DNA of 64,000 nt, taken from NCBI GenBank assembly GCA_965221185.1, contig OZ244866.1:2390901-2454900 (forward strand), read 5' to 3'. Both the position numbers and the translations under genes were made by a program. The first letter of the stretch is position 1. Each line of letters starts with the position of its first letter. The stretch is from Candidatus Aldehydirespirator sp. Lineage in GTDB: Bacteria; Actinomycetota; Acidimicrobiia; Acidimicrobiales; Aldehydirespiratoraceae. The notes below the pieces were generated by a model that saw only the letters and a program-made list of their open reading frames with translations, was not told the origin of the DNA and ran no database searches. Positions 11,380 to 62,112 of this stretch are shown here, piece after piece.

Positions 11380-11406
11380 CCCTGGCCGAGCCCGCCTGCT
11401 AGGGCC

Positions 11407-12666: not shown

Positions 12667-13815
12667 ATGACAGACGTGTACCTCGATTACAACGCCTCGG
12701 CGCCGCTCGATCCCAGGGTGTTCGAGGCGATGGTGCCGGTGCTGTCAGGCGAAGTGGGAAACGCTTCCTCGGTGCACCGGTTCGGCCGCCGCCAGGCCGC
12801 GGCGGTGAACGAGGCCCGTGAGCACGTTGCGGCACTAGTGGGTGGGCGGCCGGCAGGGGTCGTCTTCACCGCGGGCGCAACAGAGGCCAACAACTTGGCT
12901 CTGCGGGGCGCGGTGGAGGCTGCCCCCGCAGGCCGGAAGCGGATGCTGGTGTCGGCAGTGGAGCACGCTTCGGTGGGCCGCACGGCGCGCTGGTTGGCCG
13001 ACTGCGGCCTAGTCAAGCTGGACGTGATCGGTGTGACCGCGGGCGGCCTCGTGACGCCCGACGCTGTGGAGGACCTGGTCGGGGACGACGTGGTGCTGGT
13101 GTCGGTGATGGCAGCCAACAGCGAGACCGGTGTGCTTAACCCAGTGGGCGAAATCGCCGAACGGGTGCGAGCCACGGGGGCACTGTTTCACTGCGACGCC
13201 ACCCAGATGGCGGGCCGCCTGCCGTTCGACATGGAGGCACTGGGGGCGGACCTGGTGTCGGTCAGCGGCCACAAGATCTGCGGACCGGGCGGGGTCGGCG
13301 CCCTGGTGGGCTCCCGCCATGCCTTGCAGAGGCTGGCGCCGGTGATCCACGGCGGTGGTCACGAGCGAGGCCTGCGCTCGGGCTCACTTAACGTCGGCGG
13401 GATTGTCGGGCTGGGCACCGCGGCACGCATCGCCGCCGACGAGCGGGAGTCGGAGTCGGCCAGGGTGAAGGTCCTGCGCGACCGACTGGTGGCCGAGTTA
13501 GAGGCAAGGCTTACCGGCGTGCGTCAGAACGGAGACCGGTCGAGACGGCTGTCGAACACAGCCAGCATCCACTTCGACGGCGCCGACGCCGAGGCGGTCA
13601 TGTCCAACATGGACCCCGTAGCCGTGTCCACCGGCAGCGCCTGCAGCGCCGGGTCGATCGAGCCGTCGGAGGTGCTGACAGCCATGGGCCTGTCCCGCGA
13701 CGCCGCCTTCGAGTCGGTGCGCTTCAGTCTCGGCCGCTTCACCACCGAAGCCGACATCGACGCGGCTGTGGAAAGCGCCGTCGGCGCCGTAGAGCGCGTC
13801 CGCGCCATGACCTGA
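12667..13815 (+). CDS. Cysteine desulfurase (class V aminotransferase; IscS/NifS/DndA type), candidate SspA/DndA partner
   Basis: PLP-lysine motif SVSGHKICGPGG and active-site loop STGSACSAGS. It lies 0.7 kb upstream of the sspBCD-like genes. Confidence 0.8.
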   Translation: MTDVYLDYNASAPLDPRVFEAMVPVLSGEVGNASSVHRFGRRQAAAVNEAREHVAALVGGRPAGVVFTAGATEANNLALRGAVEAAPAGRKRMLVSAVEHASVGRTARWLADCGLVKLDVIGVTAGGLVTPDAVEDLVGDDVVLVSVMAANSETGVLNPVGEIAERVRATGALFHCDATQMAGRLPFDMEALGADLVSVSGHKICGPGGVGALVGSRHALQRLAPVIHGGGHERGLRSGSLNVGGIVGLGTAARIAADERESESARVKVLRDRLVAELEARLTGVRQNGDRSRRLSNTASIHFDGADAEAVMSNMDPVAVSTGSACSAGSIEPSEVLTAMGLSRDAAFESVRFSLGRFTTEADIDAAVESAVGAVERVRAMT

Positions 13816-13851
13816 TCAGCCGAGGCCCGGCTCGCCGAGTTGTGTGAGCGG

Positions 13852-14037
13852 CTAGGCGGACTCGGGTGGAGGAGACGGGAACGCGAGCCTGAGAACGCGC
13901 TCGCTCTCGGCCTCATCGTAGGCATCCGCCATCCGGCGCATCCTCTCCCGCTCCTCCTTGGTCGGAGGCCGCGGCGGCACCGAAAAGTCCAGCTTGAACA
14001 CGAGGCGCTGGGGACCAAAGACGGGAATGAACTTCAT
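13852..14037 (-). CDS. Small hypothetical protein (61 aa)
   Basis: A GAGGAGGAA RBS precedes the ATG. The ATG overlaps (ATGA) the stop of the C-terminal frame of the upstream DUF3467-like gene. Confidence 0.4.
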   Translation of the reverse strand: MKFIPVFGPQRLVFKLDFSVPPRPPTKEERERMRRMADAYDEAESERVLRLAFPSPPPESA

Positions 14038-14326
14038 GATAGTTCCTCCTCATCAGGGGGGCGTGATGTGAACCTACCATATTCTTCCTCAAACTGGGCG
14101 ACGTGGTTGGATATCTGCTGGGCCAGTTCCCATGCCACCGTGGCGGAAGCTTCATCCATGCGACGTAAACCGCGTCCGGCAGTTGCGCCCCCTCGCGAAG
14201 CGACACGGCGAACTCCAAGGTGAACTCCAAGCCGGTGTGCCAGACGCTCACAACGTTGGCGTGCACGGCGCCGAGGGGAACGGAGCCGTCCACACGGATA
14301 CTCGGCGTTGAGTCACCAGATGACAT
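14034..14326 (-). pseudogene. DUF3467-like gene split by a frameshift near 14156-14164
   Basis: The N-terminal frame gives IRVDGSVPLGAVHANVVSVWHTGLEFTLEFAV. A second frame, offset by 2 nt, gives RMDEASATVAWELAQQISNHVAQFEEEYGRF and stops at 14034-14036. Together they resemble one DUF3467-type protein as recalled. Confidence 0.5.
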
Positions 14327-14494
14327 CGAAAGATATCCGATCTACCAAGACGAGGGCGAAGCGACACCTCGCGCCGCCGCGGCGCTGGACCCCACCCTCC
14401 ACCGCGGACGCGACCGCCGCGGCTGCGGTGCCGGGGGCGTCCTAGCTGCTGACTATGTTGAAGGCATGACCGAAGGGACTGCGGGGGCTGGCCG

Positions 14495-15523
14495 ATGAGG
14501 CTGGCGGACATGGCCGAGCGCTCGTTCGCCCGCCATGAGACGTTCCATCCCCGCTACGGCTGGTTCCGCAAGGCCTACGCCTTCGTCGCTGACGAGGGGA
14601 ACGACTTCAACCAGGAGGACGCCCCCATCATTATCGGCGTGGGCAAGAACATGGTGCGGGCTATCCGCTTCTGGGGCCTAGCCGCGAAGCTGATCGTCAG
14701 GGGCCAGCAATCACGGAAACCTCGAACGCCGAGTCTCGATCCCACCCGGCGCGGCCGCGCTCTCTTCGGCGAACAGGGATGGGATCCCTACATGGAGGAT
14801 CCCGGAACGCTCTGGCTGCTGCACTGGTTGCTGCTAGCACCCCCCACCCAACTTCCGGTGTGGTGGCTTGCTCTCAACGAGTTTCACGCCGTCGAATTCG
14901 AAGATGCTGACCTTGAGGAGGCCATCAGCACTCACCTGGAAGCTGTAGCAACGTGGAAGCCGCCCCACCCGTCGTCGGTCAAGAAGGACATCAGCGCACT
15001 GGTTCGCACATATGCGCCAGCGCCTCGATCCGACCGCGCCGGCATCGACGACGTCTTGGACTGCCCGCTACGCGAGTTGAACTTGCTGGGGCGCTCGGCC
15101 GCGACAGGCAAGTACCGGTTCACGCTTGGGCCGAAGCCGACGCTGCCCTCGGCAATCGTTGCGCATGCCGTGCTCGACTACATCGACCGTACCGGCACCG
15201 GCGGGAACACGGCCACCCTAAGCCGCCTCGCCCACGAGTCCGGCGCCCCCGGCCGGGCGTTCAGGCTCACCGAAGCCGAGTTGCTCGCCGCACTACAACC
15301 CACGGTGGAGCGCAATCGCGCCTTGAGCCTCGCGACTCCGGCGGGTGTGGCGCAGCTCGCCTGGTCAGGGGAACCCGCGGCTATCGCCACAACGATCCTC
15401 GACGACTACTACGGGACATCCGCAACCGAGGTCTGCTCGGGGTGCATTGGCGACGTGTCCGTCGGCAACCGCCGCGCTGTGGGGGCCATGAGCCGAGTTC
15501 GCTCCGCCGCGGGAGTTCGATGA
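14495..15523 (+). CDS. sspB: DUF4007-family protein, SspB-like
   Basis: The N-terminal FARHETFHPRYGWFRKAY signature matches the DUF4007 family as recalled. It is followed by a large ATPase and a PAPS-reductase-like gene, as in Ssp loci. Confidence 0.75.
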   Translation: MRLADMAERSFARHETFHPRYGWFRKAYAFVADEGNDFNQEDAPIIIGVGKNMVRAIRFWGLAAKLIVRGQQSRKPRTPSLDPTRRGRALFGEQGWDPYMEDPGTLWLLHWLLLAPPTQLPVWWLALNEFHAVEFEDADLEEAISTHLEAVATWKPPHPSSVKKDISALVRTYAPAPRSDRAGIDDVLDCPLRELNLLGRSAATGKYRFTLGPKPTLPSAIVAHAVLDYIDRTGTGGNTATLSRLAHESGAPGRAFRLTEAELLAALQPTVERNRALSLATPAGVAQLAWSGEPAAIATTILDDYYGTSATEVCSGCIGDVSVGNRRAVGAMSRVRSAAGVR

Positions 15524-18500
15524 TGACCATGCTCGCAGACGGCATCTCGGTGGGGAGCCGCTTCGCCCGCTCGGCGAACCTGGAACGCGACATCGCCCAA
15601 TCCGAGCCGCTCGACGGGTACGTCGTCACCGCTCGAGCCCTCGATGTGATTGAGCGAATCGCTTCTACGGCCGCTACAGGGGCTGCTGGCGGAGCCTGGT
15701 CGCTGACTGGGCCCTACGGATCGGGAAAGTCTTCGCTGGCCCTCCTGCTTGATGCTGCCCTTGGCACCCGCTCTGAAGTCCGGCACGCGGCGCTGAAGCT
15801 CATCGACGATGCCTCAGCCGCCGTCGGAGATCTGCTTCGGAAGGCCCACCATCGGTATGGAACCGAGGACTGCGGCTTCCATCGCGGACTCGTGACCGCC
15901 GGGCGGGAGCCGCTCAACCGCACGGTGCTGTGGGCACTCCACAGGGCAGTTCTGCGCAGCTACGGCAGCATTCCCTCGCCCAAGGGATTCCGGGCTGCCG
16001 AGACATTGCGAGGAGCGCTTGAAGATGCTGAGACGGACGACCCCCGACGCCCTGGCCCATCGCCCTCTGCTCTCTTGGAAGTCGCCCGCTGCCTTGCCGA
16101 AGACGCCCCGCTGCTGTTGGTCATCGATGAGTTCGGAAAGAACCTCGAGGCGATCCGCGACGGCGGCAACGCCGACCCCTACCTGTTGCAGCAGCTAGCG
16201 GAGGCGGGTCAGGGCTCCGGCTTGCCCATCTTCGTGCTGACGCTGCAACACCTGTCGTTCGAGGACCACATGGCCGGTGCAGACGGCCCGCAACGCCGAG
16301 AGTGGGCCAAGGTCCAAGGCCGCTTCGAAGACGTGACTTTCGTCGAGTCAGCCGGGCAGACGCGCGCCCTCATCGGAACTGTCTTCGACGTCCAAGATGA
16401 CTCGCTCAGGGCTCGGATCAACGGGTGGGCCAGCGTCCAGGCCAAGAGGATGCGGGCACTGGGCGTCGCCGATCTCGCTGACCCGAAGACGGTGGCGTCC
16501 TGCTACCCGCTGCATCCATTGGCGGCGCTGGTCCTGCCCGAGTTGTGCAGCCGGTACGGCCAGCACGAGCGCACGCTGTTCTCGTTCCTGACCGGACCGC
16601 ACTCCGCGAGCGCTTCTTCGTTCCTTGCCTCTACCGAGTTGCCCGTTCATGGGCGTCCTCCGTCGCTGGGCCTCGAGGCTGTGTACGACTACTTCGTCGG
16701 CAGCAGCGCGCTCAACATCGAGTCCGCCCGTCTGTCAGGCCGATGGACCGAGATCGCCACGCGACTGCGCGACTCCCACGGACTCACGCCATCGCAGGCC
16801 CGGCTGGCTAAGGCGATCGCCCTTCTCAATCTCGTGTCCACAACGGGAACGATCCGGGCATCCCGACAGCTGCTCGCGTTGACCGACAAGAGCGGAAACG
16901 GAGCTCTGGCCAAACTGGAAGACGCGGGCGTGGTCACCTACCGCGACTTCGCCGACGAATACCGGATCTGGCATGGAACAGACGTCGACATCCAACTCCT
17001 CCTTGATGCGGCCCGCCGCCGGATCGAGCGGCAGCCGCTGGTGGAGATCCTCTCCGATATCGATCAGCCGCAGCCGGTCGTCGCGGCTCGCCACAGCGCG
17101 GAGAATGACGTCCTTCGTGTGTTCCATAAGCGCTATGCCAGTTGCGAGGAGCAAGTAGAGCCCGTCGACGCCTTCTCCCGATACGACGGCGAAGTGTTGC
17201 TGGTGGTGGACTCGCACCGTCGTACACCGACCATGGCCCGGCCATCGGCGACGACCAAGCCCATCGTGGCAGCGATACCCGGCGATGTGACTGACCTAGA
17301 CGCAGCCGCCCGGGAGGTCGCTGCCGTGAAGGACGCCCTCAACGACCCCTCGGTCGCAGAAGACTGGGTGGCGCGACAAGAGCTGAGCGAGCGCCTGGCC
17401 CAAACCCGAGTCGCCTTCGACCAAGCCCTCGCCGACACCTTCCACTCAGATGCGTGCGAGTGGATTCTGCTCGGAATCGAGGATGGCCAGAAGCTCCGAC
17501 GTGGGCGGGGAACCGCCGCGCTGTCCGATGCAGCCAACCGTGCGTACTCCAACACCCCGATGATCCGCAACGAGATGCTCAACCGAACTGTGCTCACGTC
17601 GCAAGGGGCGAAGGCCCGAGCAATTCTCCTCAAAGCAATGATCGAGCACGGGTCTGACCCGGACCTCGGCTTGAAGGGCTACGGACCAGAAGTCGCCATG
17701 TACCGGGCCTTCCTGCATGGCACCGGGCTCCACGACGCCGACGCCATGGGCTTTGGTGAGCCATTTGATGACTCGCTGCAACCGGCTTGGAACATGCTTC
17801 AAGAAGAGTTCAAGCGAGCGACAACCCGGCGCGTCAATCTGAACGACATTTACGCAGCACTGCTGTCGCCAACATACGGAATGAAGTCCGGTGCCATCCC
17901 CGTATTGGTCACCGCCGCGCTGATCGCCGCTTCCGATGAGATCGCCATCTACGAGCACGGCACTTTCAAGCCGTTGCTCACATCCGAGTTGTCCGAACGG
18001 ATGGTGCGCAACCCCGGCCACTTCGACATCAAACACTTCGCCAACACGACCGGCGCCCGCGAGCAAGTCGTGCAAGCACTCGTGGACCGGCTCAAGCCGC
18101 AGTCCCACTTCCGTATGCATCGGGTCGCCAACGTGCTTACTGTCGTCGGACATCTGGTGTCCCGAATCAGCCGACTCGACAACTACACCCTCCGTACGAG
18201 GAACCTTGAGCCCAAGACGCTGAGGGCGCGGGAGGCACTGCTAGCCGCTGTCGAGCCCGATGAGTTGCTCTTCATGGCCCTTCCCGAGGCTCTCGGATTC
18301 CGCCCGGTGCCCGCCCACACAAAGACCTACTCGAAGGCAAGCGCCTACGCCGTCGAGGTGGCAGTCGTAGTGGACGAACTAACCAGCAACTACGAGCGGC
18401 TCCTGAGCCAACTCCTGAAGCTGCTGCTCGATGCCAGCGCCGAGACCACCCGCTTGGCCGTGATGGGCCAGGCCGACGCTCTAGAGGGCGAGGTCCTCGA

Positions 18501-18993
18501 TCCCGACATGCGGGCGTTCGTGCTCACTCTGGCAAGCGACAGCATCAAGGCCGATTTCGACTGGGCGAAGGCTGTCGCCACCGTCGTCGCCAAGAAAGCG
18601 CCGGCGGAATGGACTGACCACGACCTGCTGCACTTCCGACGCGAGATCACCGAGCAGTTCGGCGCATTTCACCGGCTCATGGCTCTCCACGCCGAACACC
18701 GGGCCTGCGGTGGCGGCGCCTTCAAGCCCTTCCGCGTGACAGTGACCAGCGCCGACGGCAACGAGCACGCCCGCCTCGTCGGGGTCGACCAGGCGCTGCG
18801 TCCGGAGGCCGAGAGAGTTCTGAAGACCGTCCTCCAAGAACTCACCAAGATCACAGGATCCCCCTTACGAGCGCACCACGCCCTGCTAGCGCTGCTGGGG
18901 GAGCGCCTGCTACCCGACACGGCCACACCCGCCGAAGAGTTGCTACTATCCGAAATATCCGATCTATCCGGGAGTCGATTGGGCCATGGCTGA
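15520..18993 (+). CDS. sspC: Large P-loop NTPase, SspC-like (1157 aa)
   Basis: The ATG at 15520 overlaps the sspB stop (ATGA). Walker A GPYGSGKSS and Walker B LLLVIDEFGK are present. The tracked ORF's 189 upstream codons overlap sspB and are discarded. Confidence 0.7.
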   Translation: MMTMLADGISVGSRFARSANLERDIAQSEPLDGYVVTARALDVIERIASTAATGAAGGAWSLTGPYGSGKSSLALLLDAALGTRSEVRHAALKLIDDASAAVGDLLRKAHHRYGTEDCGFHRGLVTAGREPLNRTVLWALHRAVLRSYGSIPSPKGFRAAETLRGALEDAETDDPRRPGPSPSALLEVARCLAEDAPLLLVIDEFGKNLEAIRDGGNADPYLLQQLAEAGQGSGLPIFVLTLQHLSFEDHMAGADGPQRREWAKVQGRFEDVTFVESAGQTRALIGTVFDVQDDSLRARINGWASVQAKRMRALGVADLADPKTVASCYPLHPLAALVLPELCSRYGQHERTLFSFLTGPHSASASSFLASTELPVHGRPPSLGLEAVYDYFVGSSALNIESARLSGRWTEIATRLRDSHGLTPSQARLAKAIALLNLVSTTGTIRASRQLLALTDKSGNGALAKLEDAGVVTYRDFADEYRIWHGTDVDIQLLLDAARRRIERQPLVEILSDIDQPQPVVAARHSAENDVLRVFHKRYASCEEQVEPVDAFSRYDGEVLLVVDSHRRTPTMARPSATTKPIVAAIPGDVTDLDAAAREVAAVKDALNDPSVAEDWVARQELSERLAQTRVAFDQALADTFHSDACEWILLGIEDGQKLRRGRGTAALSDAANRAYSNTPMIRNEMLNRTVLTSQGAKARAILLKAMIEHGSDPDLGLKGYGPEVAMYRAFLHGTGLHDADAMGFGEPFDDSLQPAWNMLQEEFKRATTRRVNLNDIYAALLSPTYGMKSGAIPVLVTAALIAASDEIAIYEHGTFKPLLTSELSERMVRNPGHFDIKHFANTTGAREQVVQALVDRLKPQSHFRMHRVANVLTVVGHLVSRISRLDNYTLRTRNLEPKTLRAREALLAAVEPDELLFMALPEALGFRPVPAHTKTYSKASAYAVEVAVVVDELTSNYERLLSQLLKLLLDASAETTRLAVMGQADALEGEVLDPDMRAFVLTLASDSIKADFDWAKAVATVVAKKAPAEWTDHDLLHFRREITEQFGAFHRLMALHAEHRACGGGAFKPFRVTVTSADGNEHARLVGVDQALRPEAERVLKTVLQELTKITGSPLRAHHALLALLGERLLPDTATPAEELLLSEISDLSGSRLGHG

Positions 18994-19834
18994 AGCAGTC
19001 CGTCACATCTGCGGTATCTCCGGCGGTAAAGACTCCAGCGCGCTCGCCGTCTACTTGCGGAACCGAGTGCCCGACATGGAGTACTTCTTCTGCGACACCG
19101 GCGCCGAGTTGCCCGAGACCTACGAGTATCTGACCCGCCTGGAGGTGATCCTCGCCAAGTCCATCGTGCGGCTAAACGCGTCGCGGGGGTTCGACCACTG
19201 GTTCGAGGTGTTCCGGGGGACGCTGCCGTCGCCCCAGATGCGGTGGTGCACCAAGAATATGAAGATCAAGCCCATCGAAGAGTGGATCGGCGACGAGCCA
19301 GCCGTGTCCTACGTGGCGATCAGGGCCGACGAGTCCAACCGCAAGGGCTACATCTCCACCAAGCCCAACATCGAGACCCGCTTCCCGTTCGTGGAGGACA
19401 GCGTCGATCACGCAGGTGTGATGAGGATCCTCCACGACGCCGGCATCGGCCTGCCCGCCTACTACGAGTGGCGGACTCGCTCAGGCTGCTACTTCTGCTT
19501 CTACCAGCGCAAGGCCGAGTGGATCGGCCTCGCCGAGCGCCACCCCGACCTCTTCGACCGGGCGGTAGCCATCGAGCAGAAGGTCCTCCAAGACGCCGGA
19601 GTCAACGGAGACGCCGACTTCGGCGACCGGGCCATGCGAGGCCGCCAGTACACATGGTCCGGCGGGGAGACCTTGCTCCAACTCCGCTCCCGACGTGAGC
19701 AGATCCTCGAGCGCCATGACGCAGCCATGGCCCGAGCCAACAAGACAAGGGCCAACCTCCCCCTCATCGAAGCGCTTGCCGACGCCTTCAACGAAGATGA
19801 CGACACCGAGGCCTGCACCGTCTGCGCGCTATGA
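18986..19834 (+). CDS. sspD: PP-loop / PAPS-reductase-family protein, SspD (DndC-like)
   Basis: SGGKDS PP-loop at about 19016-19036. Cys pairs CYFC and CTVC are present. There is an 8-nt overlap with sspC. Confidence 0.75.
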   Translation: MAEAVRHICGISGGKDSSALAVYLRNRVPDMEYFFCDTGAELPETYEYLTRLEVILAKSIVRLNASRGFDHWFEVFRGTLPSPQMRWCTKNMKIKPIEEWIGDEPAVSYVAIRADESNRKGYISTKPNIETRFPFVEDSVDHAGVMRILHDAGIGLPAYYEWRTRSGCYFCFYQRKAEWIGLAERHPDLFDRAVAIEQKVLQDAGVNGDADFGDRAMRGRQYTWSGGETLLQLRSRREQILERHDAAMARANKTRANLPLIEALADAFNEDDDTEACTVCAL

Positions 19835-22380
19835 CAGGCGCTGCCTCACCCGTACGACAGGACTCCGACGGCAATCACTACTGGACCTTCATTGTCAGCA
19901 ACACCCACCTCCAGAGCAATCGTCGGATAGCGTTTCCGCAAGACGTGGCAGAGGCTCTTGGTTGCAAGCCAGATGCTGTCACTCGCATAGCGGTGGAGAA
20001 CCCTGCGGGCTGCCGCAAGCTAATGGTGCTCTTGGAGCGGAGACCATCTGCAAGAACGATCATTCTCCATCTCGCCGAACCTCTCAGGAGACTGAACGCC
20101 GCCCAGGAGCAGTTGATCGATCTTGTGGTCGCTGGTCCAAGACGAGTGGTATTGAGGCCGAGCACACGCTCAATGCCATTGACCTGGGGAGCTAGACCCA
20201 GAAACTCCAATCCAGGGACTCCGGGGCCAACTCGGACCGCAGCACCTGCGCGGCCAGCACCATGGGGCAGTCCACCTACGCCCCTCCTGCCGGCCTGGCA
20301 CTTGGACGCGCTAGCGGCGGTCTCTCTACCGTCCGACCTAGTGACTCTGCTGGACGGCGAGGCCGGCGAGACCCAGTTACGCTCCATCGGCGATCTTGTC
20401 GGTTTCTGGGAGTCGCGAACGGAACCCGTCGGAATAGAAGCCCGCCGCGCTCTGTCGCGCATAGTGAGGCAGCAGCGCTGGCCGCCGAAAGACCACATAG
20501 TAATTCCCAGCGAAGCCGAGGCCGTCCATCTATTGGAATGCCCTCTCGGGCAGCGTGCGACAAACTGCGTCAGCAGAGCGGTGGCTGACAGAAGACTCAA
20601 GACCGAACAGCCTGTGACAGTTGGTTGGCTCTTGTCGTTGCAGAACTTCGGCATCGCCTCCTTGCTGGAGGTCATGTGTGTCGCAGAAGCTGCCGTCGAG
20701 AGCGGATTCTTGACAGGGCGGCCCGCATCGGCACCCGATCAACCGGCTACGTCACCGAAGCCCTCCGAGCCTCCAGACCCATCGATAACCACATGGAGTT
20801 TCGCGATCCCCCTGCTGAAGAGGCTTCTCGCTGGCTCGGCTGAGTTCTACGGCGCACACACCCTAACCGACGCACTCACCTGCGATCTCGGAAGGATCAT
20901 CTCCGAACTGCACATGGAGGACCCTCTCAACGGCCTTCTCATCTGCGACCTTGCCGACAGGCGAACCTTCGCGGAAGAAGCGGTTTCTGCCGTGACAGAG
21001 TTCTGGGAAGCGCTGTCACCGATAGAACGACTCATCCTCGAGGAGCGCGTACTCGCGCCAGAGCCGCTAAGCCTTGTAGAGATCGGCCGGAAGACAAGCC
21101 TCTCTCGGGAACGGATTCGTCAGATACAGAAGCCCCTAGAGGCCAGGTTGCGCCAATCCCGCGATGTTGACGGTGACGTCCGATCCTGGGTGAGCTTCGT
21201 CGGGGCCACGATTCGCCATCATGTCGGCCCGATCGTGGCCGAGAGGGATCTGGAGGAGCGCATTACGCGGGCGTTCCCGGATGTGGAGACCGCGGAGGCG
21301 GACAAGTCTGTCATGCCCATCGCGCGGCAACTGCTTCGAAGGGAACTTGGATACGCCTGCCATGGTGGAGTCTGTTTCGACGACGCGGCGTCCGAAGTAG
21401 TCAAGGGTCTCAAGGACTCAGCCCGCTGTATTGCGGATGATACCGGGCTCATCGACGAGCGAGATCTGCGAGCTCGCCTGCCCGAGGAGACGTGGCAGCA
21501 GCACTGGGCCGTCCTCTTGGCGCGGTGCGGCCTCTTGCGCCTTAGCGGCCGGCTGGCACTGCGGGACACAGCGAAGGCCCGGGCTAGGGCGGCGCTGATT
21601 TCGATTGGCCGGCCGGCAACAAAGGAAGAAGTAGCGCAACAGAGCGGGCTGGACTCCGCCCGCGCTGGTGCACAACTGTCGGCAATGGACGGCGTGGTGC
21701 GGGCCGACAAGAACCGGTGGGGCCTTGCAGAGTGGATCGACGACGAGTACGAGGGAATCGCCGCAGAGATCGTGCAGCGCATCGAAGAGGACGGCGGAGC
21801 GACGCGCCTAGAGAGGCTGCTCGAAGAGTTGCCCCGTATGTTCGAAGTGAGCGAGAATAGCGTTCGTTCATATATCGCGACGCCGAAATTCTCACTCAAG
21901 GACGGCTACGTCAGCGCAGCCGATTCATCTTCCATCAGGCTTCGGTCCCTCGCTGACGCCGTCCACGGTCACACGGTTGACGGGCGGCCATACTGGCAAT
22001 TCAGAGTGGAGGACCGATACTTCGATGGCTACAGCCTGACCGGACTGCCACCTGAGATAGTAAAGGCACTTGGCTGTGAGCCGGACGGGCGGGTACGCGT
22101 TCCGATCTCGGAACCCACTGACTGCAAGCCCATTTCGGTGAGCTGGCCGCTCGCCTCTAACGCCGGCGCCAACATTGGATATCTCTCTGAGCCGCTGCGC
22201 CGGCTCGGCGCGCGCGGCGGCGAGCGTGCCCTGTTCGTCATCGACAGCCCCGAGAGCGTCTCGATACGGCTCGAGACCCCCGTCATCGACGAGGAGGCCA
22301 CCAAAGAAGTAGACGCGGCATCCTTCGAACGGGGGCATAACTTCCTAGAGCGGATGAAGAACAGGCGCCGGGCGCTGTGA
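19831..22380 (+). CDS. 849-aa multi-domain DNA-binding protein (sigma-70 region-4-like HTH, HARE-HTH-like winged helix, duplicated terminal domains)
   Basis: ATGA overlap with sspD. LSLVEIGRKTSLSRERIRQIQKPLEARL resembles sigma region 4. VVRADKNRWGLAEW resembles the HARE-HTH C-terminal strand. The N- and C-terminal ~95-aa segments share YW.F.V, ALGC.PD and EPLRRL. Confidence 0.55.
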   Translation: MTGAASPVRQDSDGNHYWTFIVSNTHLQSNRRIAFPQDVAEALGCKPDAVTRIAVENPAGCRKLMVLLERRPSARTIILHLAEPLRRLNAAQEQLIDLVVAGPRRVVLRPSTRSMPLTWGARPRNSNPGTPGPTRTAAPARPAPWGSPPTPLLPAWHLDALAAVSLPSDLVTLLDGEAGETQLRSIGDLVGFWESRTEPVGIEARRALSRIVRQQRWPPKDHIVIPSEAEAVHLLECPLGQRATNCVSRAVADRRLKTEQPVTVGWLLSLQNFGIASLLEVMCVAEAAVESGFLTGRPASAPDQPATSPKPSEPPDPSITTWSFAIPLLKRLLAGSAEFYGAHTLTDALTCDLGRIISELHMEDPLNGLLICDLADRRTFAEEAVSAVTEFWEALSPIERLILEERVLAPEPLSLVEIGRKTSLSRERIRQIQKPLEARLRQSRDVDGDVRSWVSFVGATIRHHVGPIVAERDLEERITRAFPDVETAEADKSVMPIARQLLRRELGYACHGGVCFDDAASEVVKGLKDSARCIADDTGLIDERDLRARLPEETWQQHWAVLLARCGLLRLSGRLALRDTAKARARAALISIGRPATKEEVAQQSGLDSARAGAQLSAMDGVVRADKNRWGLAEWIDDEYEGIAAEIVQRIEEDGGATRLERLLEELPRMFEVSENSVRSYIATPKFSLKDGYVSAADSSSIRLRSLADAVHGHTVDGRPYWQFRVEDRYFDGYSLTGLPPEIVKALGCEPDGRVRVPISEPTDCKPISVSWPLASNAGANIGYLSEPLRRLGARGGERALFVIDSPESVSIRLETPVIDEEATKEVDAASFERGHNFLERMKNRRRAL

Positions 22381-24653
22381 GTGCTTTGGCCTCTGAGCCC
22401 ACTATGCAGCCCGGGCTATATCGCCTGCCCGAAGCCCCTATCGGAGAGAACGTGCTCATTCCGGGATTCCGCGCTGCGAAGTCGGTTCGCGGGGCGTTCG
22501 GATGGTTCACCGCAGGATGGATTAGGCAACTCGCGCACGGCCTAGCTGAGTACCTCAACCGGCAAGACACAACACCGATTACCTTCACCGTGGCGCCAAT
22601 CATGTACCCGAGAGAGCGTGATGCGATCGAGGCTGCGCAGACGATGACGGCCGAAGAGGCCGCCCAGCGCGTTGCCGAGGTGTTCATTGACGGGCGGCTT
22701 GAAGCGGACGCCCTCGGCCGCCACGCCTTGGACTGCCTGGCTTGGATGCTCGCCGCAGGCCGCCTTTACTTGCGGGTCGCGATTCCCAGGCCCGGATCGA
22801 ACTACCATCCCAAGCTCTGGCTCTTCGACGACGGCGAGCACCAAGTCCTAGTCAGAGGATCCGCCAACGCCACCGGCCGCGGCCTCGACGGCGCCGTGGA
22901 GCACATGGACGTCGATGTCTCCTGGAGCGAGCACGGGCAAAGACGTGTCAGGGCCGGAGTCGCAATGCTCGACGACTGGGAGCACGGAAGAAGCCTCGGC
23001 ATAGAACGCGTCGTGGGCATGCCGGACGCCCTCAAAGAAGGAATCGTCAAGACCGCGCCCACAACGCCACCCTGCATCGAGGACTACTACTGGGCCCTTC
23101 CCAAGGCCGCGCCCCCTCCCAGCAGCCGAGACTCGAGCGCAGAGCGACTGGAGAAGCTGCGCTCCCGGTTCGGTCCTCGGCTCGCCCAAGATCCGCCTCG
23201 GCTGCGCATACCCGATTGGCTGGAGTGGCAGACCGGCGACTATGCGCACCAAGGAGAGGCCGTCGCCGCGTGGGAGTCGGCCGGCGAGCGCGGGACACTC
23301 GCCATGGCTACCGGCGCAGGCAAGACACTCACAGCTCTCGTGTGCGTAGCACGCGCTCAGGAGCGCATAGACGAAGCGCTTCTTGTCATCGTTTCGGCGC
23401 CGTCAGTGCCTCTCATCAGCCAATGGCGCGAAGAGATCCAACACTTCGGCGTAGAAGCGGCCACCCCCACCCTTGCAGCGAACACCAACAGTGCGATCAC
23501 CAACCTGCTCCGCTCCCTTGGCGCGGGCGGCACACACATAGCGGTGGTCACTAACAACCTGCTGTGCGATCCCGCCTTCCAGAGAACAGCAGTTGGCCTG
23601 ATCGACAACGCGCCCGGCCCGGTCGCCACCATGCTGATAGCCGACGAAGCGCACACACTCGGAGCCAAGAGCTTCGTCGCGAACAAGCCTGAGTTCTTTG
23701 AGCGGCGCCTCGCATTATCAGCCACCCCGGAACGCCAGCACGACCCCGACGGCACCGAGGAGATATTCGAGTTCTTCGGCCCGCAGGTCTACGAGTTCGG
23801 GCTCGGCCGGGCCATCGGGTTCTGTCTCACGCCATACGACTACCACGTGCACGCCACAGTTCTCGACGACGACGAGCTGGACGAGTTTCACGAGTTGACG
23901 AAACGGATAGGACGAATAGCATCCCGACTTCGGGACCAACTCCAAGACGACACCGCCCTCAAGGGCCTGCTAATCAGGAGACGCAGAATCATTGAGACCG
24001 CCGAGGCGAAGCTCCCTTTGTTGCGAGAGGTCCTGAATCGCCGAGGGCCACGGTCCCTCAGACACGCCCTCGTGTATGCGTCCGCGAAGAACCCCGAACA
24101 ATTCGACCGCATCGCCGCGGCCCTCACGGACCTAGGGGTCCATTGGGCGTCCGTAACTCAGGAGACGACGGCAAGGCCCCGCAAACTCGACGACACGCTG
24201 AAGCTGTTCGCAGACGGTGGCTTGCAGATCCTGCTTGCAAAGAGAGTACTCGACGAAGGCGTGGACATTCCAAGCACCCGGGAAGCGTTCATCGTCGCAT
24301 CGTCTACGGTCGAGCGGGAATGGATCCAGCGGCGCGGCCGGATCCTGCGCCGGCATCCTGGGAAAGCGCACGCAGTTCTACACGACTTCCTCGCGCTGCC
24401 CCCGGTGCAGTTGGTCCGAAGCGCGGGCGACTCTGACAAGGATCTCAAGCGGATCGTCCGCAGCGAGTTGTCCCGCGCGTTCGCCTTCGCCGCGCATGCC
24501 CGCAACGGCGCAGGCAGCGACGGCGTCCTCGCTCACCTTGAACTAATCAAGAGCGCCTACTGGCCGGGACCTGAGCACCGGGCCCTGTCGATCCTGCAGG
24601 CCCCGGGCGATCATCTGATCGACCCGTCCACACCCGAGGGGACACCATGGTAA
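22377..24653 (+). CDS. HKD phospholipase-D-family nuclease domain fused to SF2 DEAH helicase (758 aa)
   Basis: GTGA overlap with the upstream gene. Single HKD motif HPKLWLFD...GSANAT (codons from 22806). Helicase motif I MATGAGKTLTAL and motif II LIADEAH are present, with a C-terminal RecA-like domain (ILLAKRVLDEGVDIP, QRRGRILR). Confidence 0.75.
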   Translation: MSALASEPTMQPGLYRLPEAPIGENVLIPGFRAAKSVRGAFGWFTAGWIRQLAHGLAEYLNRQDTTPITFTVAPIMYPRERDAIEAAQTMTAEEAAQRVAEVFIDGRLEADALGRHALDCLAWMLAAGRLYLRVAIPRPGSNYHPKLWLFDDGEHQVLVRGSANATGRGLDGAVEHMDVDVSWSEHGQRRVRAGVAMLDDWEHGRSLGIERVVGMPDALKEGIVKTAPTTPPCIEDYYWALPKAAPPPSSRDSSAERLEKLRSRFGPRLAQDPPRLRIPDWLEWQTGDYAHQGEAVAAWESAGERGTLAMATGAGKTLTALVCVARAQERIDEALLVIVSAPSVPLISQWREEIQHFGVEAATPTLAANTNSAITNLLRSLGAGGTHIAVVTNNLLCDPAFQRTAVGLIDNAPGPVATMLIADEAHTLGAKSFVANKPEFFERRLALSATPERQHDPDGTEEIFEFFGPQVYEFGLGRAIGFCLTPYDYHVHATVLDDDELDEFHELTKRIGRIASRLRDQLQDDTALKGLLIRRRRIIETAEAKLPLLREVLNRRGPRSLRHALVYASAKNPEQFDRIAAALTDLGVHWASVTQETTARPRKLDDTLKLFADGGLQILLAKRVLDEGVDIPSTREAFIVASSTVEREWIQRRGRILRRHPGKAHAVLHDFLALPPVQLVRSAGDSDKDLKRIVRSELSRAFAFAAHARNGAGSDGVLAHLELIKSAYWPGPEHRALSILQAPGDHLIDPSTPEGTPW

Positions 24654-24862
24654 GCAACTATGACCGCATTTACCTTGAAATACAGAAGGAGGCCAAGCGT
24701 GTCGAGCGAGAACATGGCGTGCCAGCAGATCCGCTAACCGAGCTGGTGATGGGGATAGTGGACACCGAGGACCGCAATCGGATTAGACCGCTGGGAAACG
24801 TCAAGCAGCGAATAGAGAACATGATTGCCGACGCCTCTCGTGCGCATACGCGGGACCCGTAG
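24647..24862 (+). CDS. Small hypothetical protein (71 aa)
   Basis: Its ATG overlaps the helicase stop by 7 nt, and it ends 8 nt before the next gene. No motif was recognised. Confidence 0.4.
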   Translation: MVSNYDRIYLEIQKEAKRVEREHGVPADPLTELVMGIVDTEDRNRIRPLGNVKQRIENMIADASRAHTRDP

Positions 24863-24870
24863 GAACGGCC

Positions 24871-27108
24871 ATGCTGACAATACACCGCGTCGAGATCAAG
24901 GACTTCGTGTGCTTTGATCGTCTCGTCATCGAACCGTCCGCTGTCTCCGACAAGCCCTTGACGGTCATACGCGCCGAGAACAGTTCCGGCAAGACGACCT
25001 TCTTGCGGGCCGTCCGTTGGGGCATGTACGGCGAGAAGGGACTTCCGGGCATCGCGTCGCGGTTCCCTCTGCATCCAGCCTGGTGGAGCCCAGACCGACC
25101 CGCCATGGAAACCAGCGTGTCAATAGAATTCGAGACAGACGGATCCAGCCGCAACTTCGAGGCGACAGGGGCTACACCGTCACGGTACCTGCTCTGCCGG
25201 ACTGTGAGAACAATCGGAAAGCCCGAAGCGAGAGATGACGAACCCGACTTCCACCGTATCGAAGAAAAGGCCACCCTTATGGTGCGGGCTCTCGACGGCC
25301 AGTGGGGCACGCATGAGCAGTCCCCGGACGCGGTAGTCGCTGAACTGCTGCCATGGGAGTTGAGAGACTTCTTCATCATGAACGCCGATGAGGCCGCCGA
25401 CTTTGTCGGCGGTAGCGAGAACAAGCCCGTATCTCGGCAGGAATATCGGGCCAAGACAACTGACGCGATCAATAGCTTGCTCGGTCTAGAGGTGTTCAAG
25501 AAGGCCCGCGACCGGGTTGAGGAAATCGCCCGAGGATTTGCAAAGAAAGCCACCAACGCCATTGGCGATCGCGATCTAATCGAACTCCAAGAAAAGCTGG
25601 ATGAGAGGAGAGCACGCAAGCAGAAGACCGAGGAAGCGATCCAAGAGTTGAAGGGCACGGAGGCAGACCTAGCCGACAGTCTCGAACAACTTGAGTCGGA
25701 TCTCGAGGAAGAGATCGGGCGGCTAAGCGCCTACGACACCTGGAGTGAACGGCTCGGCAAGAACCGTGAGGAGCACAAGTCGGCAGTTTCCGAACGCGCC
25801 AACTTCGTCGCCGACCTTGCAGGCAGCCTTGAGTCGCCCGACTTACTCGCTCGATTGGCGTCTGTGGCGATTATGTCGACCCACAGGTTCCTCGAACCGC
25901 TGCATGAACAGGGGCGTATACCCGTCGCCCATCTCTCGTTCGTCCGCAGCCTGCTGCAGCAGGGCCGATGCGTCTGCGGACAGGACCTCTCAGAAGATAG
26001 CGATCATCGGCGCTGCGTGGAGCGAAGGGTCGCTGAAGCAGATCAAGAGGCAGCTAGAGCCGGTTACCTGTACCACCTCTATCAGGCGACGCTGTCGCTG
26101 CACGGCCTGGCAGAGACCTCTGATTGGAAGAACAAGCGCGCCCGCCATGCCGCCAATCTCGCCCTCTGCGATAAGCGAATCTCTGACTTGGAAACTGAAG
26201 AGAAGGATCTCGATTCTAGGCTGGCCGACATCGAAGAGGAGAAGGTACAGACCGCCAGGGACGAGATAGCAGCCTACAAGATTCAACTCGAAACAGTAAG
26301 ACGGGATCTGACGCTTCTCGAAGCGACAAGGCGGCAACTGGAACAAGAAATAGACCCGCTTGTAAAAGAGATCGCCCAGCGGCAACGCAACGAGCAAGCG
26401 GCAACTGACCTTCGTATCGCAGAGGAAATGGCACAATATGCGGTCGATCTTCTCGACCGGGCCTACTCAACCATCGAACAAGACCAAGTGAACGCCTTGT
26501 CAGAGCGGATGAACCTGCTCTTTCAGCAGATGGCCGCCAACGTCTCAGACGCGGACTTCTCTGAGGCCCACCACAGCAAAGCCAATCTCCGTATGATCAC
26601 AAGAGTGGGCGTGCGACCTGTTGAAGGCAGGATCGGGAGCTTCGAGATCTACGCATTGAATAACCGTGCACGTGCCATGACGCCAGTCCAAATCAACGGT
26701 GCTTCGCGGCGCGTACTTGCTCTCTCCTTCGTGCTAGCGCTCTGTGACGAATCGAATACGCAGGCACCGCTCATCGCTGACTCACTACTCAATTTCTTGT
26801 CCGGTTCAGTGCGGCATAACACCCTGAGAGTGACTTCGGAGCACTCCCGGCAGCCGATCCTATTACTCACAAACTCAGACCTAGAGGCGTCCACAGAGGT
26901 AGCGGTAGTAGAAAGACACGCCGGAGCCACTTACACACTTACCGGCCAATGGGACGCTATTGAAGCCGGTACGGGCGGGGACGTAGTTCGTCGGACCCAA
27001 GACAAGTTGGTAGCGCTACTGTGCTCATGCGGGCCTCGCCAGCATTGCGACATCTGTGAGCGCACCGGACAAGCGGAAGCTGTCGGCTGGACAAGACGAC
27101 ACAACTAA
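24871..27108 (+). CDS. DndD-like SMC/ABC-type ATPase with long coiled coil (745 aa)
   Basis: An AGGAA RBS is present. The N-terminus IHRVEIKDFVCFD...AENSSGKTTFLRAVRWGMYG carries Walker A. A central coiled coil follows. The C-terminal PLIADSLLNFLSGSVRHN...PILLLTNSDLE parallels the DndD P.IIDTPLgRLD..HR...vilLsTDeE block as recalled. A CSCG...CDIC cluster sits at the C-terminus. Confidence 0.65.
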   Translation: MLTIHRVEIKDFVCFDRLVIEPSAVSDKPLTVIRAENSSGKTTFLRAVRWGMYGEKGLPGIASRFPLHPAWWSPDRPAMETSVSIEFETDGSSRNFEATGATPSRYLLCRTVRTIGKPEARDDEPDFHRIEEKATLMVRALDGQWGTHEQSPDAVVAELLPWELRDFFIMNADEAADFVGGSENKPVSRQEYRAKTTDAINSLLGLEVFKKARDRVEEIARGFAKKATNAIGDRDLIELQEKLDERRARKQKTEEAIQELKGTEADLADSLEQLESDLEEEIGRLSAYDTWSERLGKNREEHKSAVSERANFVADLAGSLESPDLLARLASVAIMSTHRFLEPLHEQGRIPVAHLSFVRSLLQQGRCVCGQDLSEDSDHRRCVERRVAEADQEAARAGYLYHLYQATLSLHGLAETSDWKNKRARHAANLALCDKRISDLETEEKDLDSRLADIEEEKVQTARDEIAAYKIQLETVRRDLTLLEATRRQLEQEIDPLVKEIAQRQRNEQAATDLRIAEEMAQYAVDLLDRAYSTIEQDQVNALSERMNLLFQQMAANVSDADFSEAHHSKANLRMITRVGVRPVEGRIGSFEIYALNNRARAMTPVQINGASRRVLALSFVLALCDESNTQAPLIADSLLNFLSGSVRHNTLRVTSEHSRQPILLLTNSDLEASTEVAVVERHAGATYTLTGQWDAIEAGTGGDVVRRTQDKLVALLCSCGPRQHCDICERTGQAEAVGWTRRHN

Positions 27109-27120
27109 AGGACCGCCACC

Positions 27121-27615
27121 ATGAGCTACTTTGTTCAACTGCTATCCCAGAAGGCACATACGCTGCGCCTGCCGCGCAAGTACACGGCTGAAGTTCAACG
27201 GTATGTGCTAACACACCAGACCGCAGCGACCCACGACAGAGCGCCCTTCCGCCGCCAGCTCGACTTCTGGGCCTTCAGCGTTGCCACTGCGCTTGCCCGA
27301 GAACTGGCACCACTCAATGGGCCGTCATCACAGTGGGGGGACAAGTTCGTCGACACCCGCAACGTTGAGATGCCCAAGGAACTGTGCGACCTGCTCGCCG
27401 TCGCAGCCTTCCACCAACTGGGTGCGGAACACGACCAAATCAACGACGCTGCACAGATCATCGAGATAGGCAACCGCCTCGCCGGAGCGGGATGCCCTGG
27501 AGTACTGGAACAACTCGGCAGCCGCGATCTTCGCCTGACTCCGTTGGAGAAGGCCCTTAACCACGCCGCATTAACGCTTGCAGACGTCGTCACCTACCCT
27601 GAGCCAAGCATATAG
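27121..27615 (+). CDS. 164-aa helical protein, possibly DndE-superfamily / dnd-associated small protein
   Basis: AAGGA RBS and a 12-nt gap after the ATPase. The pattern APFRRQLDFWAFSVATAL ... LLAVAAF ... IIEIGNRLAGAGCPGVLEQL resembles small helical proteins found next to DndD-like ATPases. This recollection is weak. Confidence 0.3.
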   Translation: MSYFVQLLSQKAHTLRLPRKYTAEVQRYVLTHQTAATHDRAPFRRQLDFWAFSVATALARELAPLNGPSSQWGDKFVDTRNVEMPKELCDLLAVAAFHQLGAEHDQINDAAQIIEIGNRLAGAGCPGVLEQLGSRDLRLTPLEKALNHAALTLADVVTYPEPSI

Positions 27616-27619: not shown

Positions 27620-28468
27620 TTACTTTCCCATTTGACGATCAAGAGTCTCTAGTACTAGTTGAACTACGCTGCAGGCTTCGCGAACCACAAAGTGCGCGAC
27701 ACTCGGCCCAACCGCAGTTGGCAAAATCCTCCCATGTCCTGTTCCCTCATCGTTTCGAAGTCTGTTCGTCATCTGAGCGATCTCCCACGATGACTGGAGA
27801 ATGGCACGAAGCTCCTTGGCTCCGACCTCATTCAACTTCACCTGCTGAGGCAATATGCCTAACCGATCTCGGGCATGATGCCACAATTCATCAAACGATG
27901 TGCTCGGTCGATATGGGACGCTGAAAGCCTTGCACACATACTTCGCAGTCGACTCAAGCATTTCTTTCGCCGTGCCTAACATCAGAGCTGGATCATCCGA
28001 GGCACGCCGAAGACGATTGAGTTGATCCTCAATTGCTGGACGACCTGTCGTAGCCACAACAGAGGCCACGCCAGCAGGATGAAGCTCACCTTCGTCGGTT
28101 AACTCCCAACTGATCCGCGCGAAGGCTGCCCTAGCCCGCTGGCGGAGGCTCTCAAGCCTAGAGTCCGATGTCTCGTCTCCTTCGAAGAAACCGACGGCTC
28201 GATATTCCGCGAGGAGCCCTTCGACGAGTTCGCGCGATCCTTCAGGTTCGCGCACCGCTGCAAGGATCGTCCGTCGAACGCGGTCTTCTTTGTTAGGTTG
28301 CAGGTTCGGGTCATTGCGATCATAGGGCGCGGCAGCTCCGAAGCCCGATCGCGTGAATACTCCGGTTAGGACACTATGGGTTGGGCCAACGCCACCGGAC
28401 ACGAAAGCACCGAGCGTTGCCCCAACCTCATTACTCACAGGGTGCCGTGCCAACGAGACCCTCCTCAT
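27620..28468 (-). CDS. Abortive-infection C-terminal (Abi_C) domain protein
   Basis: ALMLGTAKEMLESTAKYVCK ... LQSSWEIAQMTNRLRNDEGTGHGR ... AHFVVREACSVVQLV matches the Abi_C pattern (..aKellEs..K......l....RN..g.aHG...A....a) as recalled. The gene is AT-richer than its surroundings and is convergent with the Ssp operon. Confidence 0.6.
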   Translation of the reverse strand: MRRVSLARHPVSNEVGATLGAFVSGGVGPTHSVLTGVFTRSGFGAAAPYDRNDPNLQPNKEDRVRRTILAAVREPEGSRELVEGLLAEYRAVGFFEGDETSDSRLESLRQRARAAFARISWELTDEGELHPAGVASVVATTGRPAIEDQLNRLRRASDDPALMLGTAKEMLESTAKYVCKAFSVPYRPSTSFDELWHHARDRLGILPQQVKLNEVGAKELRAILQSSWEIAQMTNRLRNDEGTGHGRILPTAVGPSVAHFVVREACSVVQLVLETLDRQMGK

Positions 28469-32463: not shown

Positions 32464-32592
32464 CGCCAACTCCCCCTTCATCGGCCGCTGCCATAGCTTG
32501 CGACAGCCCGCGTGACACTGCATAGACGCGTCTCCAGCACCAGCCGGTCAACGCCGCAGCGGCGAAGGTGAGGGTGCGATGGGGTCGGGGAA

Positions 32593-33748: not shown

Positions 33749-33835
33749 TCACGGGAGAGGGGTCTGGGCGGTCAGGCCACCATCTATGATGAACAGGCTG
33801 CCCGACACCAACGACGCCTCGCCGTCGCAATCACG
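33749..33835 (-). pseudogene. Second copy of SDR 3' end (fragment)
   Basis: It translates to DGEASLVSGSLFIIDGGLTAQTPLP-stop. About 65 nt are roughly 85% identical by eye to 32104-32175. Confidence 0.55.
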
Positions 33836-62035: not shown

Positions 62036-62112
62036 CGTCACACCATAGGGGCCGAGCGGACAGGCCTGACCGGGAAGATCTTGATCGTCAACGAGCGAGG
62101 CCCCGGGCCCGA

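Follow-up and report, generated by a model that had tools for sequence, protein, structure and literature searches.

A phosphorothioation operon joining Ssp writer genes to a PbeABCD effector and a predicted DNA-binding companion in Candidatus Aldehydirespirator

Introduction

The described phosphorothioate (PT) systems closest to the locus studied here are SspABCD–SspE, reportedly characterized by Xiong in 2020, SspABCD–SspFGH, and the DndCDEA–PbeABCD system of Haloterrigena jeotgali. The locus comprises nine genes at positions 12667–27615 of a 64,000-nucleotide stretch of Candidatus Aldehydirespirator sp. DNA (contig OZ244866.1; the whole stretch is called the window), in which genes of the SspABCD writer are followed by a PbeABCD-type effector, with an unannotated gene, here called X, between the two. 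Our favored interpretation, held at slightly better than even confidence, is that the locus is a modular PT restriction–modification hybrid in a genomic island and that X assists the Pbe effector in recognizing DNA.

The PT writer of the window is common to SspABCD–SspE and SspABCD–SspFGH (Wang 2021, PMC8092258), and the partners in those systems are SspE, with DUF262 and DUF1524 domains, or the three-gene SspFGH module, in which SspF carries a Walker A motif and SspH an FtsK/SpoIIIE-like C terminus. The same study puts the share of sspBCD clusters lacking any known restriction partner at about 84%. PbeABCD was published in 2019 as a PT-dependent module (Xiong 2019, PMC6459918) and was re-annotated in 2024 as a CxC ATP-binding cassette (ABC)-ATPase/DndE system (Rakesh 2024, PMC10853773). 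It has been described with Dnd, with methylases, or alone (PMC6459918, PMC10853773); the original study found it also without PT genes or with methylases, and the activity reported there required PT. How PbeABCD finds its target is left unresolved between the two accounts (PMC6459918 versus PMC10853773). In a 2025 review (PMC12707154), restriction is divided into three branches, dndFGH/sspFGH, sspE, and pbeABCD, with no pairing of Pbe and Ssp. Outside the PT field, NgoAVII, CglI, and BfiI are reported to be phospholipase D (PLD) nucleases with a B3-like recognition domain (PMC4267653, PMC4267654, PMC5861437), NgoAVII and CglI being precedents for the combination of PLD nuclease, B3 domain, and helicase.

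Results and Discussion

An Ssp Writer and a Pbe Effector in One Operon

The nine open reading frames (ORFs) that an earlier note had listed on this DNA are present and intact, both in the ORF list and on direct translation.

12667–13815, + strand: sspA, 382 aa
14495–15523, + strand: sspB, 342 aa
15520–18993, + strand: sspC, 1157 aa
18986–19834, + strand: sspD, 282 aa
19831–22380, + strand: X, 849 aa, overlapping sspD (ATGA) and pbeA (GTGA)
22377–24653, + strand: pbeA, 758 aa
24647–24862, + strand: pbeB, 71 aa
24871–27108, + strand: pbeC, 745 aa
27121–27615, + strand: pbeD, 164 aa

Translation of the window bears out that the eight same-strand genes from sspB to pbeD are linked: neighbors overlap or lie no more than 12 nt apart. 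The junctions are −4 nt at sspB/sspC (ATGA), −8 at sspC/sspD, −4 at sspD/X (ATGA), −4 at X/pbeA (GTGA), −7 at pbeA/pbeB, +8 at pbeB/pbeC, and +12 at pbeC/pbeD. Between the end of the desulfurase gene and sspB there are 679 nt, in line with the 0.7 kb estimated earlier, and because this gap holds two small reverse-strand ORFs we regard sspA as a separate transcription unit. One member of the pair, which lies at 13852–14293 on the − strand, has 61 aa; the other is a copy, with its frame broken, of a DUF3467-like ORF that has 86 aa in a relative. The pair also fills the gap in two related loci (L001 and L007). A promoter/terminator scan of the window found no plus-strand terminator-like sites within the operon; it was otherwise uninformative, giving fewer sites than shuffled sequences. 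Chance does not explain this set of ORFs: the nine genes stand in the same order in 35 of 80 nonredundant related loci.

The four upstream genes were identified as SspABCD by full-length PADLOC matches with which the Pfam results agree, and every motif cited for them in the earlier note was located (HETF..RYGWFRK, GPYGSGKS, LLLVIDEFGK, SGGKDS, CYFC, and CTVC). SspA is a class-V pyridoxal phosphate-dependent cysteine desulfurase (PADLOC SspA 3.6e-130, DndA 4.8e-126; Pfam Aminotran_5 1.4e-72). SspB, the DUF4007 protein that serves as the nickase and DNA-recognition subunit of Ssp, aligns over its full length (residues 10–306 to 2–295 of the 295-residue PADLOC model, 4.4e-99; Pfam DUF4007 1.4e-81). 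SspC is a P-loop ATPase (PADLOC E = 0, residues 17–1105 to 2–1104 of 1104) with Walker A GPYGSGKS and Walker B VIDEFGK, and SspD is a 3′-phosphoadenosine 5′-phosphosulfate (PAPS)-reductase-like PP-loop protein (full-length PADLOC match, 2.9e-108; Pfam PAPS_reduct) with the SGGKDS motif. Models for DndC and DndD gave weak partial PADLOC matches only among the nine proteins, and the writer is SspABCD, not DndCDEA; DndB-like queries against the 64-kb window returned chance matches only.

The absence of an SspE-like gene nearby, claimed in the earlier note, was also borne out. None of the nine proteins had a PADLOC match to SspE, SspF, SspG, or SspH; the presence of such models in PADLOC 2.0.0 is unconfirmed, so that the domain-level comparison carries the weight, and Pfam detected no DUF262, DUF1524, or FtsK/HerA-like domain in the nine proteins. 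An SspE or SspFGH partner is ruled out for the five downstream genes, which have no model or domain match to either and are five, not three; the DUF262/DUF1524 features of SspE and the Walker A plus FtsK-like features of SspFGH are absent from their products.

Instead, four of the five downstream genes are assigned to PbeABCD, PbeA and PbeC by sequence and PbeB and PbeD by order and size. PbeA matches its PADLOC model over the full length (1.7e-156; residues 15–712 to 11–666 of 672) and matches NCBIfam TIGR04095, "DNA phosphorothioation system restriction enzyme," at 1.5e-101, with a score of 340.6 bits that lies below the 600-bit cutoff. The Pfam domains ResIII, DEAD, and Helicase_C, a single HKD motif (HPKLWLFD), helicase motif I (ATGAGKT), and a DEAH motif identify PbeA, at the level of sequence, as an HKD (PLD) nuclease fused to a superfamily 2 (SF2) helicase. 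The best PADLOC match of PbeC is PbeC (8.2e-41), and DndD comes behind many PbeC models; Pfam finds AAA_23; the protein has a Walker A motif (SSGKTT) and, at aa 367–369 in mid-protein, a CVC that fits the CxC Zn-hook by which Rakesh et al. define the CxC ABC-ATPase clade (PMC10853773), to which PbeC is therefore assigned. The pbeB product had no match in PADLOC, Pfam, or NCBIfam; its slot, between pbeA and pbeC, and its size are those of PbeB, a fast-evolving small protein (66 aa in PMC6459918), and it is 48–62% identical to its counterparts in relatives. The pbeD product likewise had no match in PADLOC, NCBIfam, or Pfam; it is a helical protein, conserved in relatives, with the slot and size of PbeD (152 aa in PMC6459918). 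At the sequence level, profile searches of PDB and Pfam gave no match of PbeD to DndE. When the AlphaFold2 (AF2) model of PbeD (mean predicted local distance difference test, pLDDT, 86.5) was searched with Foldseek, the DndE chains 5wtu and 4lrv were among the top 26 matches, the best being 5wtu_C (TMt 0.66), at nonsignificant E values of at least 2.3; the model thus lends weak support to the proposal that PbeD is a DndE cognate.

These assignments change the picture given in the earlier note, which had taken the five-gene partner to be undescribed and the locus to mix Ssp-type with Dnd-type parts. The mixture is of Ssp with Pbe, and four of the five downstream genes match a published PT restriction module; X does not, and what stands of the claim is that X is unannotated and that the coupling of Ssp to Pbe has no description in the literature searched. 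Specifically, neither the Ssp–Pbe pairing nor a "sigma factor-like" protein linked to phosphorothioation was found in the open-access literature searched. What is new is thus the coupling of Ssp and Pbe in one operon, by the literature searched, together with gene X; both modules are known, and the architecture is not categorically new.

The closest described arrangement, in Haloterrigena jeotgali (PMC6459918; the CxC ABC-ATPase/DndE system of PMC10853773), has the same four-gene effector order with similar sizes: an HKD–SF2 helicase, a protein of about 70 aa, a CxC coiled-coil ABC ATPase, and a protein of about 150 aa, directly behind a PT writer in one operon. It differs in its writer, which is DndCDEA there and SspABCD, the single-strand PT type (CpsCA being an example of such a mark), here. 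Moreover, the window has X between writer and effector, and its PbeB and PbeD are too diverged for the PADLOC, NCBIfam, and Pfam models.

Ssp–Pbe combinations are already present in GenBank, including on two plasmids of cultured bacteria. A Sphingomonadaceae plasmid carries desulfurase, DUF4007, SspC, PAPS reductase, and PbeA, -B, -C, and -D genes in a single overlapping operon without X, and on a Rhizobium indigoferae plasmid the pbe and ssp clusters are convergent.

X Is Predicted to Consist Almost Entirely of DNA-Binding Domains

X had no PADLOC match, and Pfam, NCBIfam, and PDB sequences recognized sigma-70 region 4 only (Pfam Sigma70_r4, 9.9e-7 at aa 394–434; best PDB profile match 2.7e-12). 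An AF2 model built with 30 homologs as input is confident and multidomain (pLDDT 81.4) and, with Foldseek, resolves the following parts.

19855–20160, + strand (aa 9–110): N-terminal B3-like β-barrel (AF2, Foldseek), followed by a disordered linker
aa 145–295: helical domain (AF2)
20779–21153, + strand (aa 317–441): helical segment ending in the sigma-4 helix-turn-helix (Pfam, PDB profiles)
21178–21918, + strand (aa 450–696): four tandem winged helices (AF2; Foldseek matches to SelB WH1–4, 1lva and 2uwm)
21976–22272, + strand (aa 716–814): C-terminal B3-like β-barrel (Foldseek)

On this model, X would be built almost entirely of DNA-binding domains, and no catalytic domain was detectable in it. 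The C-terminal barrel resembles VRN1 (4i1k; probability 1.0, TMt 0.55) and also FUS3, LEC2, and VAL1; among restriction enzymes, the Foldseek matches of the barrels include the N-domain of LlaJI.R1 (6c5d) and the C-domain of BfiI (3zi5). The two barrels are paralogs (32% identity over 100 aa, E 1e-19). The C-terminal one is present in every family member examined (domain occupancy 1.0), and the N-terminal one is an accessory domain, found in the window clade and most of the class-2 relatives defined below. The conserved core of the family consists of the last two winged helices, which are the most conserved, and the C-terminal barrel; the sigma-like, first winged-helix, and helical regions vary. 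In relatives, the counterpart of aa 145–295 gives weak matches to the RNA-polymerase α C-terminal domain (α-CTD) and to helix-hairpin-helix (HhH) folds, and the window protein itself shows no α-CTD match.

The family is sizeable and unannotated, because an exhaustive hidden Markov model (HMM) search returned 894 representative proteins at E ≤ 1e-30 and the 32 relatives found by word-indexed search are all labeled "hypothetical." Against plasmids, tblastn with X gave partial remote matches only, on actinobacterial plasmids in unrelated or unannotated contexts. Relative to three class-2 loci (L004, L007, and L008), the N-terminal barrel (19855–20160) is 53–61% identical, and the remainder of X is 25–42% identical except for the last two winged helices (~58%), a pattern that hints at recombination inside X near its sspD side.

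Analogous proteins accompany Pbe on two RefSeq plasmids, NZ_CP049815.1 (Pontibrevibacter) and NZ_CP015441.1 (Aurantiacibacter), where the Pbe operon includes a gene whose product the NCBI annotation pipeline PGAP names "sigma factor-like helix-turn-helix DNA-binding protein." One companion, of 1017 aa, overlaps the start of pbeA in a Dnd-linked operon and has α-CTD/HhH-like matches, as do some X relatives; the other, of 437 aa, follows pbeD in a methylase-linked operon. Their homology to X covers the sigma-4 region only (hhalign Prob 94.7 and 96.7, 75–100 columns).

With its predicted B3-like barrels and PbeA, the window combines a PLD/HKD nuclease, a helicase, and B3-like domains, as NgoAVII, CglI, and BfiI variously do. 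In the ATP-dependent restriction enzymes of the NgoAVII and CglI type, B3 domain and PLD nuclease reportedly form one fusion protein, and a helicase subunit with a Z1 domain and a cognate C5-methylase go with it. In the window, nuclease and helicase are fused in PbeA, and the B3 domains reside on a separate protein with sigma-4 and winged helices; there are in addition an ABC ATPase, PbeD, and a small protein, and self-marking is presumably by PT. Because the B3 protein is separate and Pfam found neither a Z1 domain nor a methylase in the nine proteins, the locus is not a member of the CglI/NgoAVII family.

X Lies at the Junction Between Modification and Effector Genes

In all seven loci reached by six look-ups of X relatives, X stood directly 3′ of sspD. 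A scan of species-representative genomes, seeded on X only, then gave 104 X relatives, of which 79 loci were kept, and a tblastn census gave the 80 nonredundant loci. The 80 loci fall into these groups.

Class 1, 35 loci: sspABCD–X–pbeABCD, the window type
Class 2, 12 loci: sspABCD–X–GIY-YIG–DndB–SNF2 helicase (with a weakly PLD-like protein in L004)
Class 3, 28 loci: X–pbeABCD without sspBCD
Incomplete, 5 loci

X follows sspD directly in all 47 Ssp-containing loci but three, which have a DndB-like insert, and the interval between X and the gene after it runs from about −13 to +18 nt in nearly all loci. By gene order, X always falls where a sulfur-modification module meets an effector set; the latter includes a helicase and, in the cases examined, a PLD-type nuclease. 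The loci come mostly from metagenome-assembled genomes (MAGs) of several phyla, frequently with sponge-associated names, and include Acidimicrobiia (Ca. Aldehydirespirator, Poriferisocius, and Poriferisodalis), Gemmatimonadota, Gamma- and Alphaproteobacteria, Thermoanaerobaculia, Binatia, Latescibacteria, Rhodothermales, and Tepidiformaceae. The window-type order itself is found in groups that include Acidimicrobiia, Gemmatimonadota, Binatia, Latescibacteria, Rhodothermales, and Gammaproteobacteria. The occurrence of the same module across many phyla of MAGs with sponge-associated names suggests exchange of defense modules among sponge-associated communities. The host of the window, a member of Acidimicrobiia, is probably a relative of sponge symbionts; Aldehydirespiratoraceae include a sponge-symbiotic lineage enriched in defense genes and ankyrin proteins (PMC11706023).

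The class-2 loci, in which an alternative partner of Ssp comes after X, are L004 (12619–17139), L007, L008, L023, L025, L026, L028, L033, L042, L066, L082, and L087. The partner genes of L004 encode a weakly GIY-YIG-like protein of 161 aa, a DndB-family protein of 466 aa, an SNF2 helicase similar to DrmD/ZorD/DpdE, and a weakly DrmC-like PLD protein of 299 aa; L004 and its duplicates are the only loci in which the gene for the PLD protein was detected. Genes for ScoMcrA-type HNH proteins with a sulfur-binding domain (SBD) often lie close to class-2 loci.

In about 25 class-3 loci, X–pbeABCD is preceded by another conserved block in place of sspBCD. It is exemplified by L056 (1912–9631), is carried also by L047, L049, L053, L057, L060–L065, L067, L071, L076, L077, L079, L083, L085, and L086, and occurs in distant versions in L045, L050, L051, L069, L070, and L084. 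The block encodes a 445-aa PAPS-reductase-like protein with weak SspD/BrxP matches, a DndA-like cysteine desulfurase (1e-140), a 714-aa PDC-M33A protein (GHKL-ATPase-like), a 291-aa PDC-M33B protein, a 347-aa DUF6339 protein, and sometimes a 505-aa protein of no assigned family. Its gene content suggests a third sulfur-based module for DNA modification, which may be undescribed.

X Is Inherited with the Effector

Pairwise-identity matrices from 24 nonredundant class-1 loci were compared by Spearman's rho, with Mantel p values.

X versus PbeA: rho 0.90, Mantel p ≤ 0.001
X versus PbeD: rho 0.88, Mantel p ≤ 0.001
X versus PbeC: rho 0.77, Mantel p ≤ 0.001
X versus SspD: rho 0.30, Mantel p 0.014
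X versus SspC: rho 0.09, Mantel p 0.18
X versus SspB: rho 0.06, Mantel p 0.28
SspB versus SspC: rho 0.89, p not computed
Ssp genes versus Pbe genes: rho about 0–0.34, p not computed

The locus thus consists of two independently shuffling units, SspBCD and X plus PbeABCD. Because rho is 0.77–0.90 against PbeA, PbeC, and PbeD and 0.06–0.09 against SspB and SspC, X is inherited with Pbe and not with Ssp, which is further supported by the 28 loci that carry X and Pbe without Ssp and by the tight spacing of X to the following gene. The five downstream genes, which the earlier note had treated as one set, do behave as a single evolutionary unit in this test. The weak correlation between Ssp and Pbe mirrors that reported between DndCD and PbeAC (rho 0.107; PMC6459918). 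Within the unit, X is the fastest-evolving large protein of the locus, with a mean identity of 0.417 over the 24 loci versus 0.625 for PbeA.

A Proposed Role for X and Its Alternatives

If X is indeed a recognition accessory of Pbe, the locus might work as follows. As family membership suggests, SspA would mobilize cysteine sulfur, and SspB, SspC, and SspD would put single-strand PT marks on host DNA; given the published properties of PbeABCD, the effector would then spare PT-marked self DNA and block invading DNA. X would serve DNA recognition as an accessory subunit, placing the PLD-nuclease/helicase effector on DNA or licensing it there, and would act in trans in a manner analogous to the B3-like domains that are reported to be fused to the PLD nucleases BfiI, R.NgoAVII, and R.CglI. 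The physical association of X with the Pbe proteins is putative, as distinct from their observed common inheritance. In support of a place for X near a nuclease and helicase, both the class-1 and the class-2 neighbor sets include a helicase and a PLD-type nuclease, the class-2 example being the weakly PLD-like protein of L004.

Several observations weigh against this interpretation. Ssp and Pbe shuffle independently (rho about 0–0.25 between the modules), and a reliance of Pbe on Ssp marks is drawn only from the conserved operon fusion. X is unlikely to read an Ssp-written motif, because it does not covary with SspB or SspC. The plasmids show that Ssp–Pbe operons without X exist, and PbeABCD of Haloterrigena functions in the absence of X (PMC6459918), which shows that the core does not require it. 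Finally, the B3 assignment has modest Foldseek E values of 4e-3 to 0.3, although the probabilities are 0.96–1.0.

The same independent shuffling would be expected if Ssp and X–PbeABCD were independent systems sharing a defense island, Ssp leaving a solitary epigenetic mark and Pbe acting without regard to PT. The occurrence of PbeABCD without PT genes or with methylases, on record (PMC6459918) and in our plasmid data, and the large share of sspBCD clusters that have no known partner (PMC8092258) fit this explanation as well. Nevertheless, we consider it unlikely: start/stop overlaps tie the modules into one operon, here and in 35 loci of several phyla; the adjacency of Ssp and Pbe also occurs on distantly related Sphingomonadaceae and Rhizobium plasmids; and the published activity of Pbe needed PT (PMC6459918).

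An improbable role for X, equally, is that of a transcription regulator of the operon, similar to DndB or BrxR, which would contact the promoter by way of its sigma-4 and winged-helix domains but take no part in the effector complex. The sigma-70 region 4 is the sole domain of X recognizable from sequence, and it is as sigma factor-like proteins that PGAP labels the analogous plasmid companions. At 849 aa, with about seven DNA-binding modules including two B3 barrels, X is nevertheless far larger than the usual defense regulators, and it lies within the operon, overlapping both neighbors, which implies cotranslation. Its rapid evolution is atypical of a regulator acting on a fixed operator, and three loci (L017, L018, and L027) have a DndB-like gene besides X.

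That X belongs to the Ssp writer, for example as a specificity or loading factor for PT modification, would account for its overlap with sspD and for its nearly invariant position after that gene; moreover, the N-terminal B3 domain occurs mainly in loci whose SspD is ~86–94% identical to that of the window. This must be rated quite doubtful, since X covaries with Pbe and not with SspB or SspC, occurs without sspBCD in 33 of the 80 loci, and has no equivalent that characterized SspABCD systems need (PMC8092258). There is very little chance, in our estimate, that X is an integrated decoy or sensor whose sigma-4 domain, perhaps with the preceding helical domain, mimics RNA-polymerase surfaces hijacked by phages, so that binding of a phage takeover protein releases PbeA, a putative mechanism that would tie PT self-marking to infection sensing and might account for the published finding of PbeABCD without DNA cleavage in the resting state.

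The results have three consequences. PbeABCD becomes a recurrent partner of Ssp in the same operon, a partner type besides SspE and SspFGH. Many Pbe modules carry an extra, previously undescribed, fast-evolving protein predicted to be made of DNA-binding domains. In addition, the barrels of X resemble those that give PLD restriction enzymes their sequence recognition, which makes X a candidate for target recognition by Pbe.

The Island and Its Neighboring Genes

From about 12 to 34 kb, a low-GC island (GC 0.56–0.66 versus ~0.70 in the flanks) surrounds the operon; a tRNA scan for its boundaries found no tRNA. On the left (5878–12276) the island is flanked by a gene for a DUF2339 membrane protein (2e-241) and an ankyrin-repeat gene, and on the right (33907–35043) by a beta-lactamase-family gene. 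These flanks are syntenic with L001, L007, and L008, and nucleotide identity to L001 is 88–90% in the flanks versus 71% in the operon, consistent with replacement or fast divergence of defense cargo in a fixed hotspot. Related genomes carry the class-2 variant in the same hotspot.

Downstream of the operon and convergent with pbeD, across a 4-nt gap, a gene at 27620–28468 (− strand) encodes 282 aa that include a match to Abi_C, the abortive infection C-terminus domain (2.5e-14); about 2.8 kb in this region have no counterpart in the syntenic L001. At 28527–28901 (− strand) lies a fragment of a ScoMcrA-type SBD–HNH gene, probably what is left, as a pseudogene, of a PT-dependent nuclease; its ORFs are broken, and the alignment spans only residues 7–125 of 314, with 64% identity. 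A gene at 30777–31496 (+ strand) encodes a 239-aa, weakly PLD/DrmC-like protein (PADLOC 3e-7; Pfam PLDc_2 0.004) that is 85% identical to the product of the gene in the same place in L001. Fragmented remnants of a short-chain dehydrogenase follow at 32107–32517 and 33752–33820. Elsewhere in the window, 62108–62559 holds 10.3 copies of a 44-bp tandem repeat (98% identity) where the AT skew is unusual, at 0.28; the repeat lacks spacers and is therefore not a CRISPR array.

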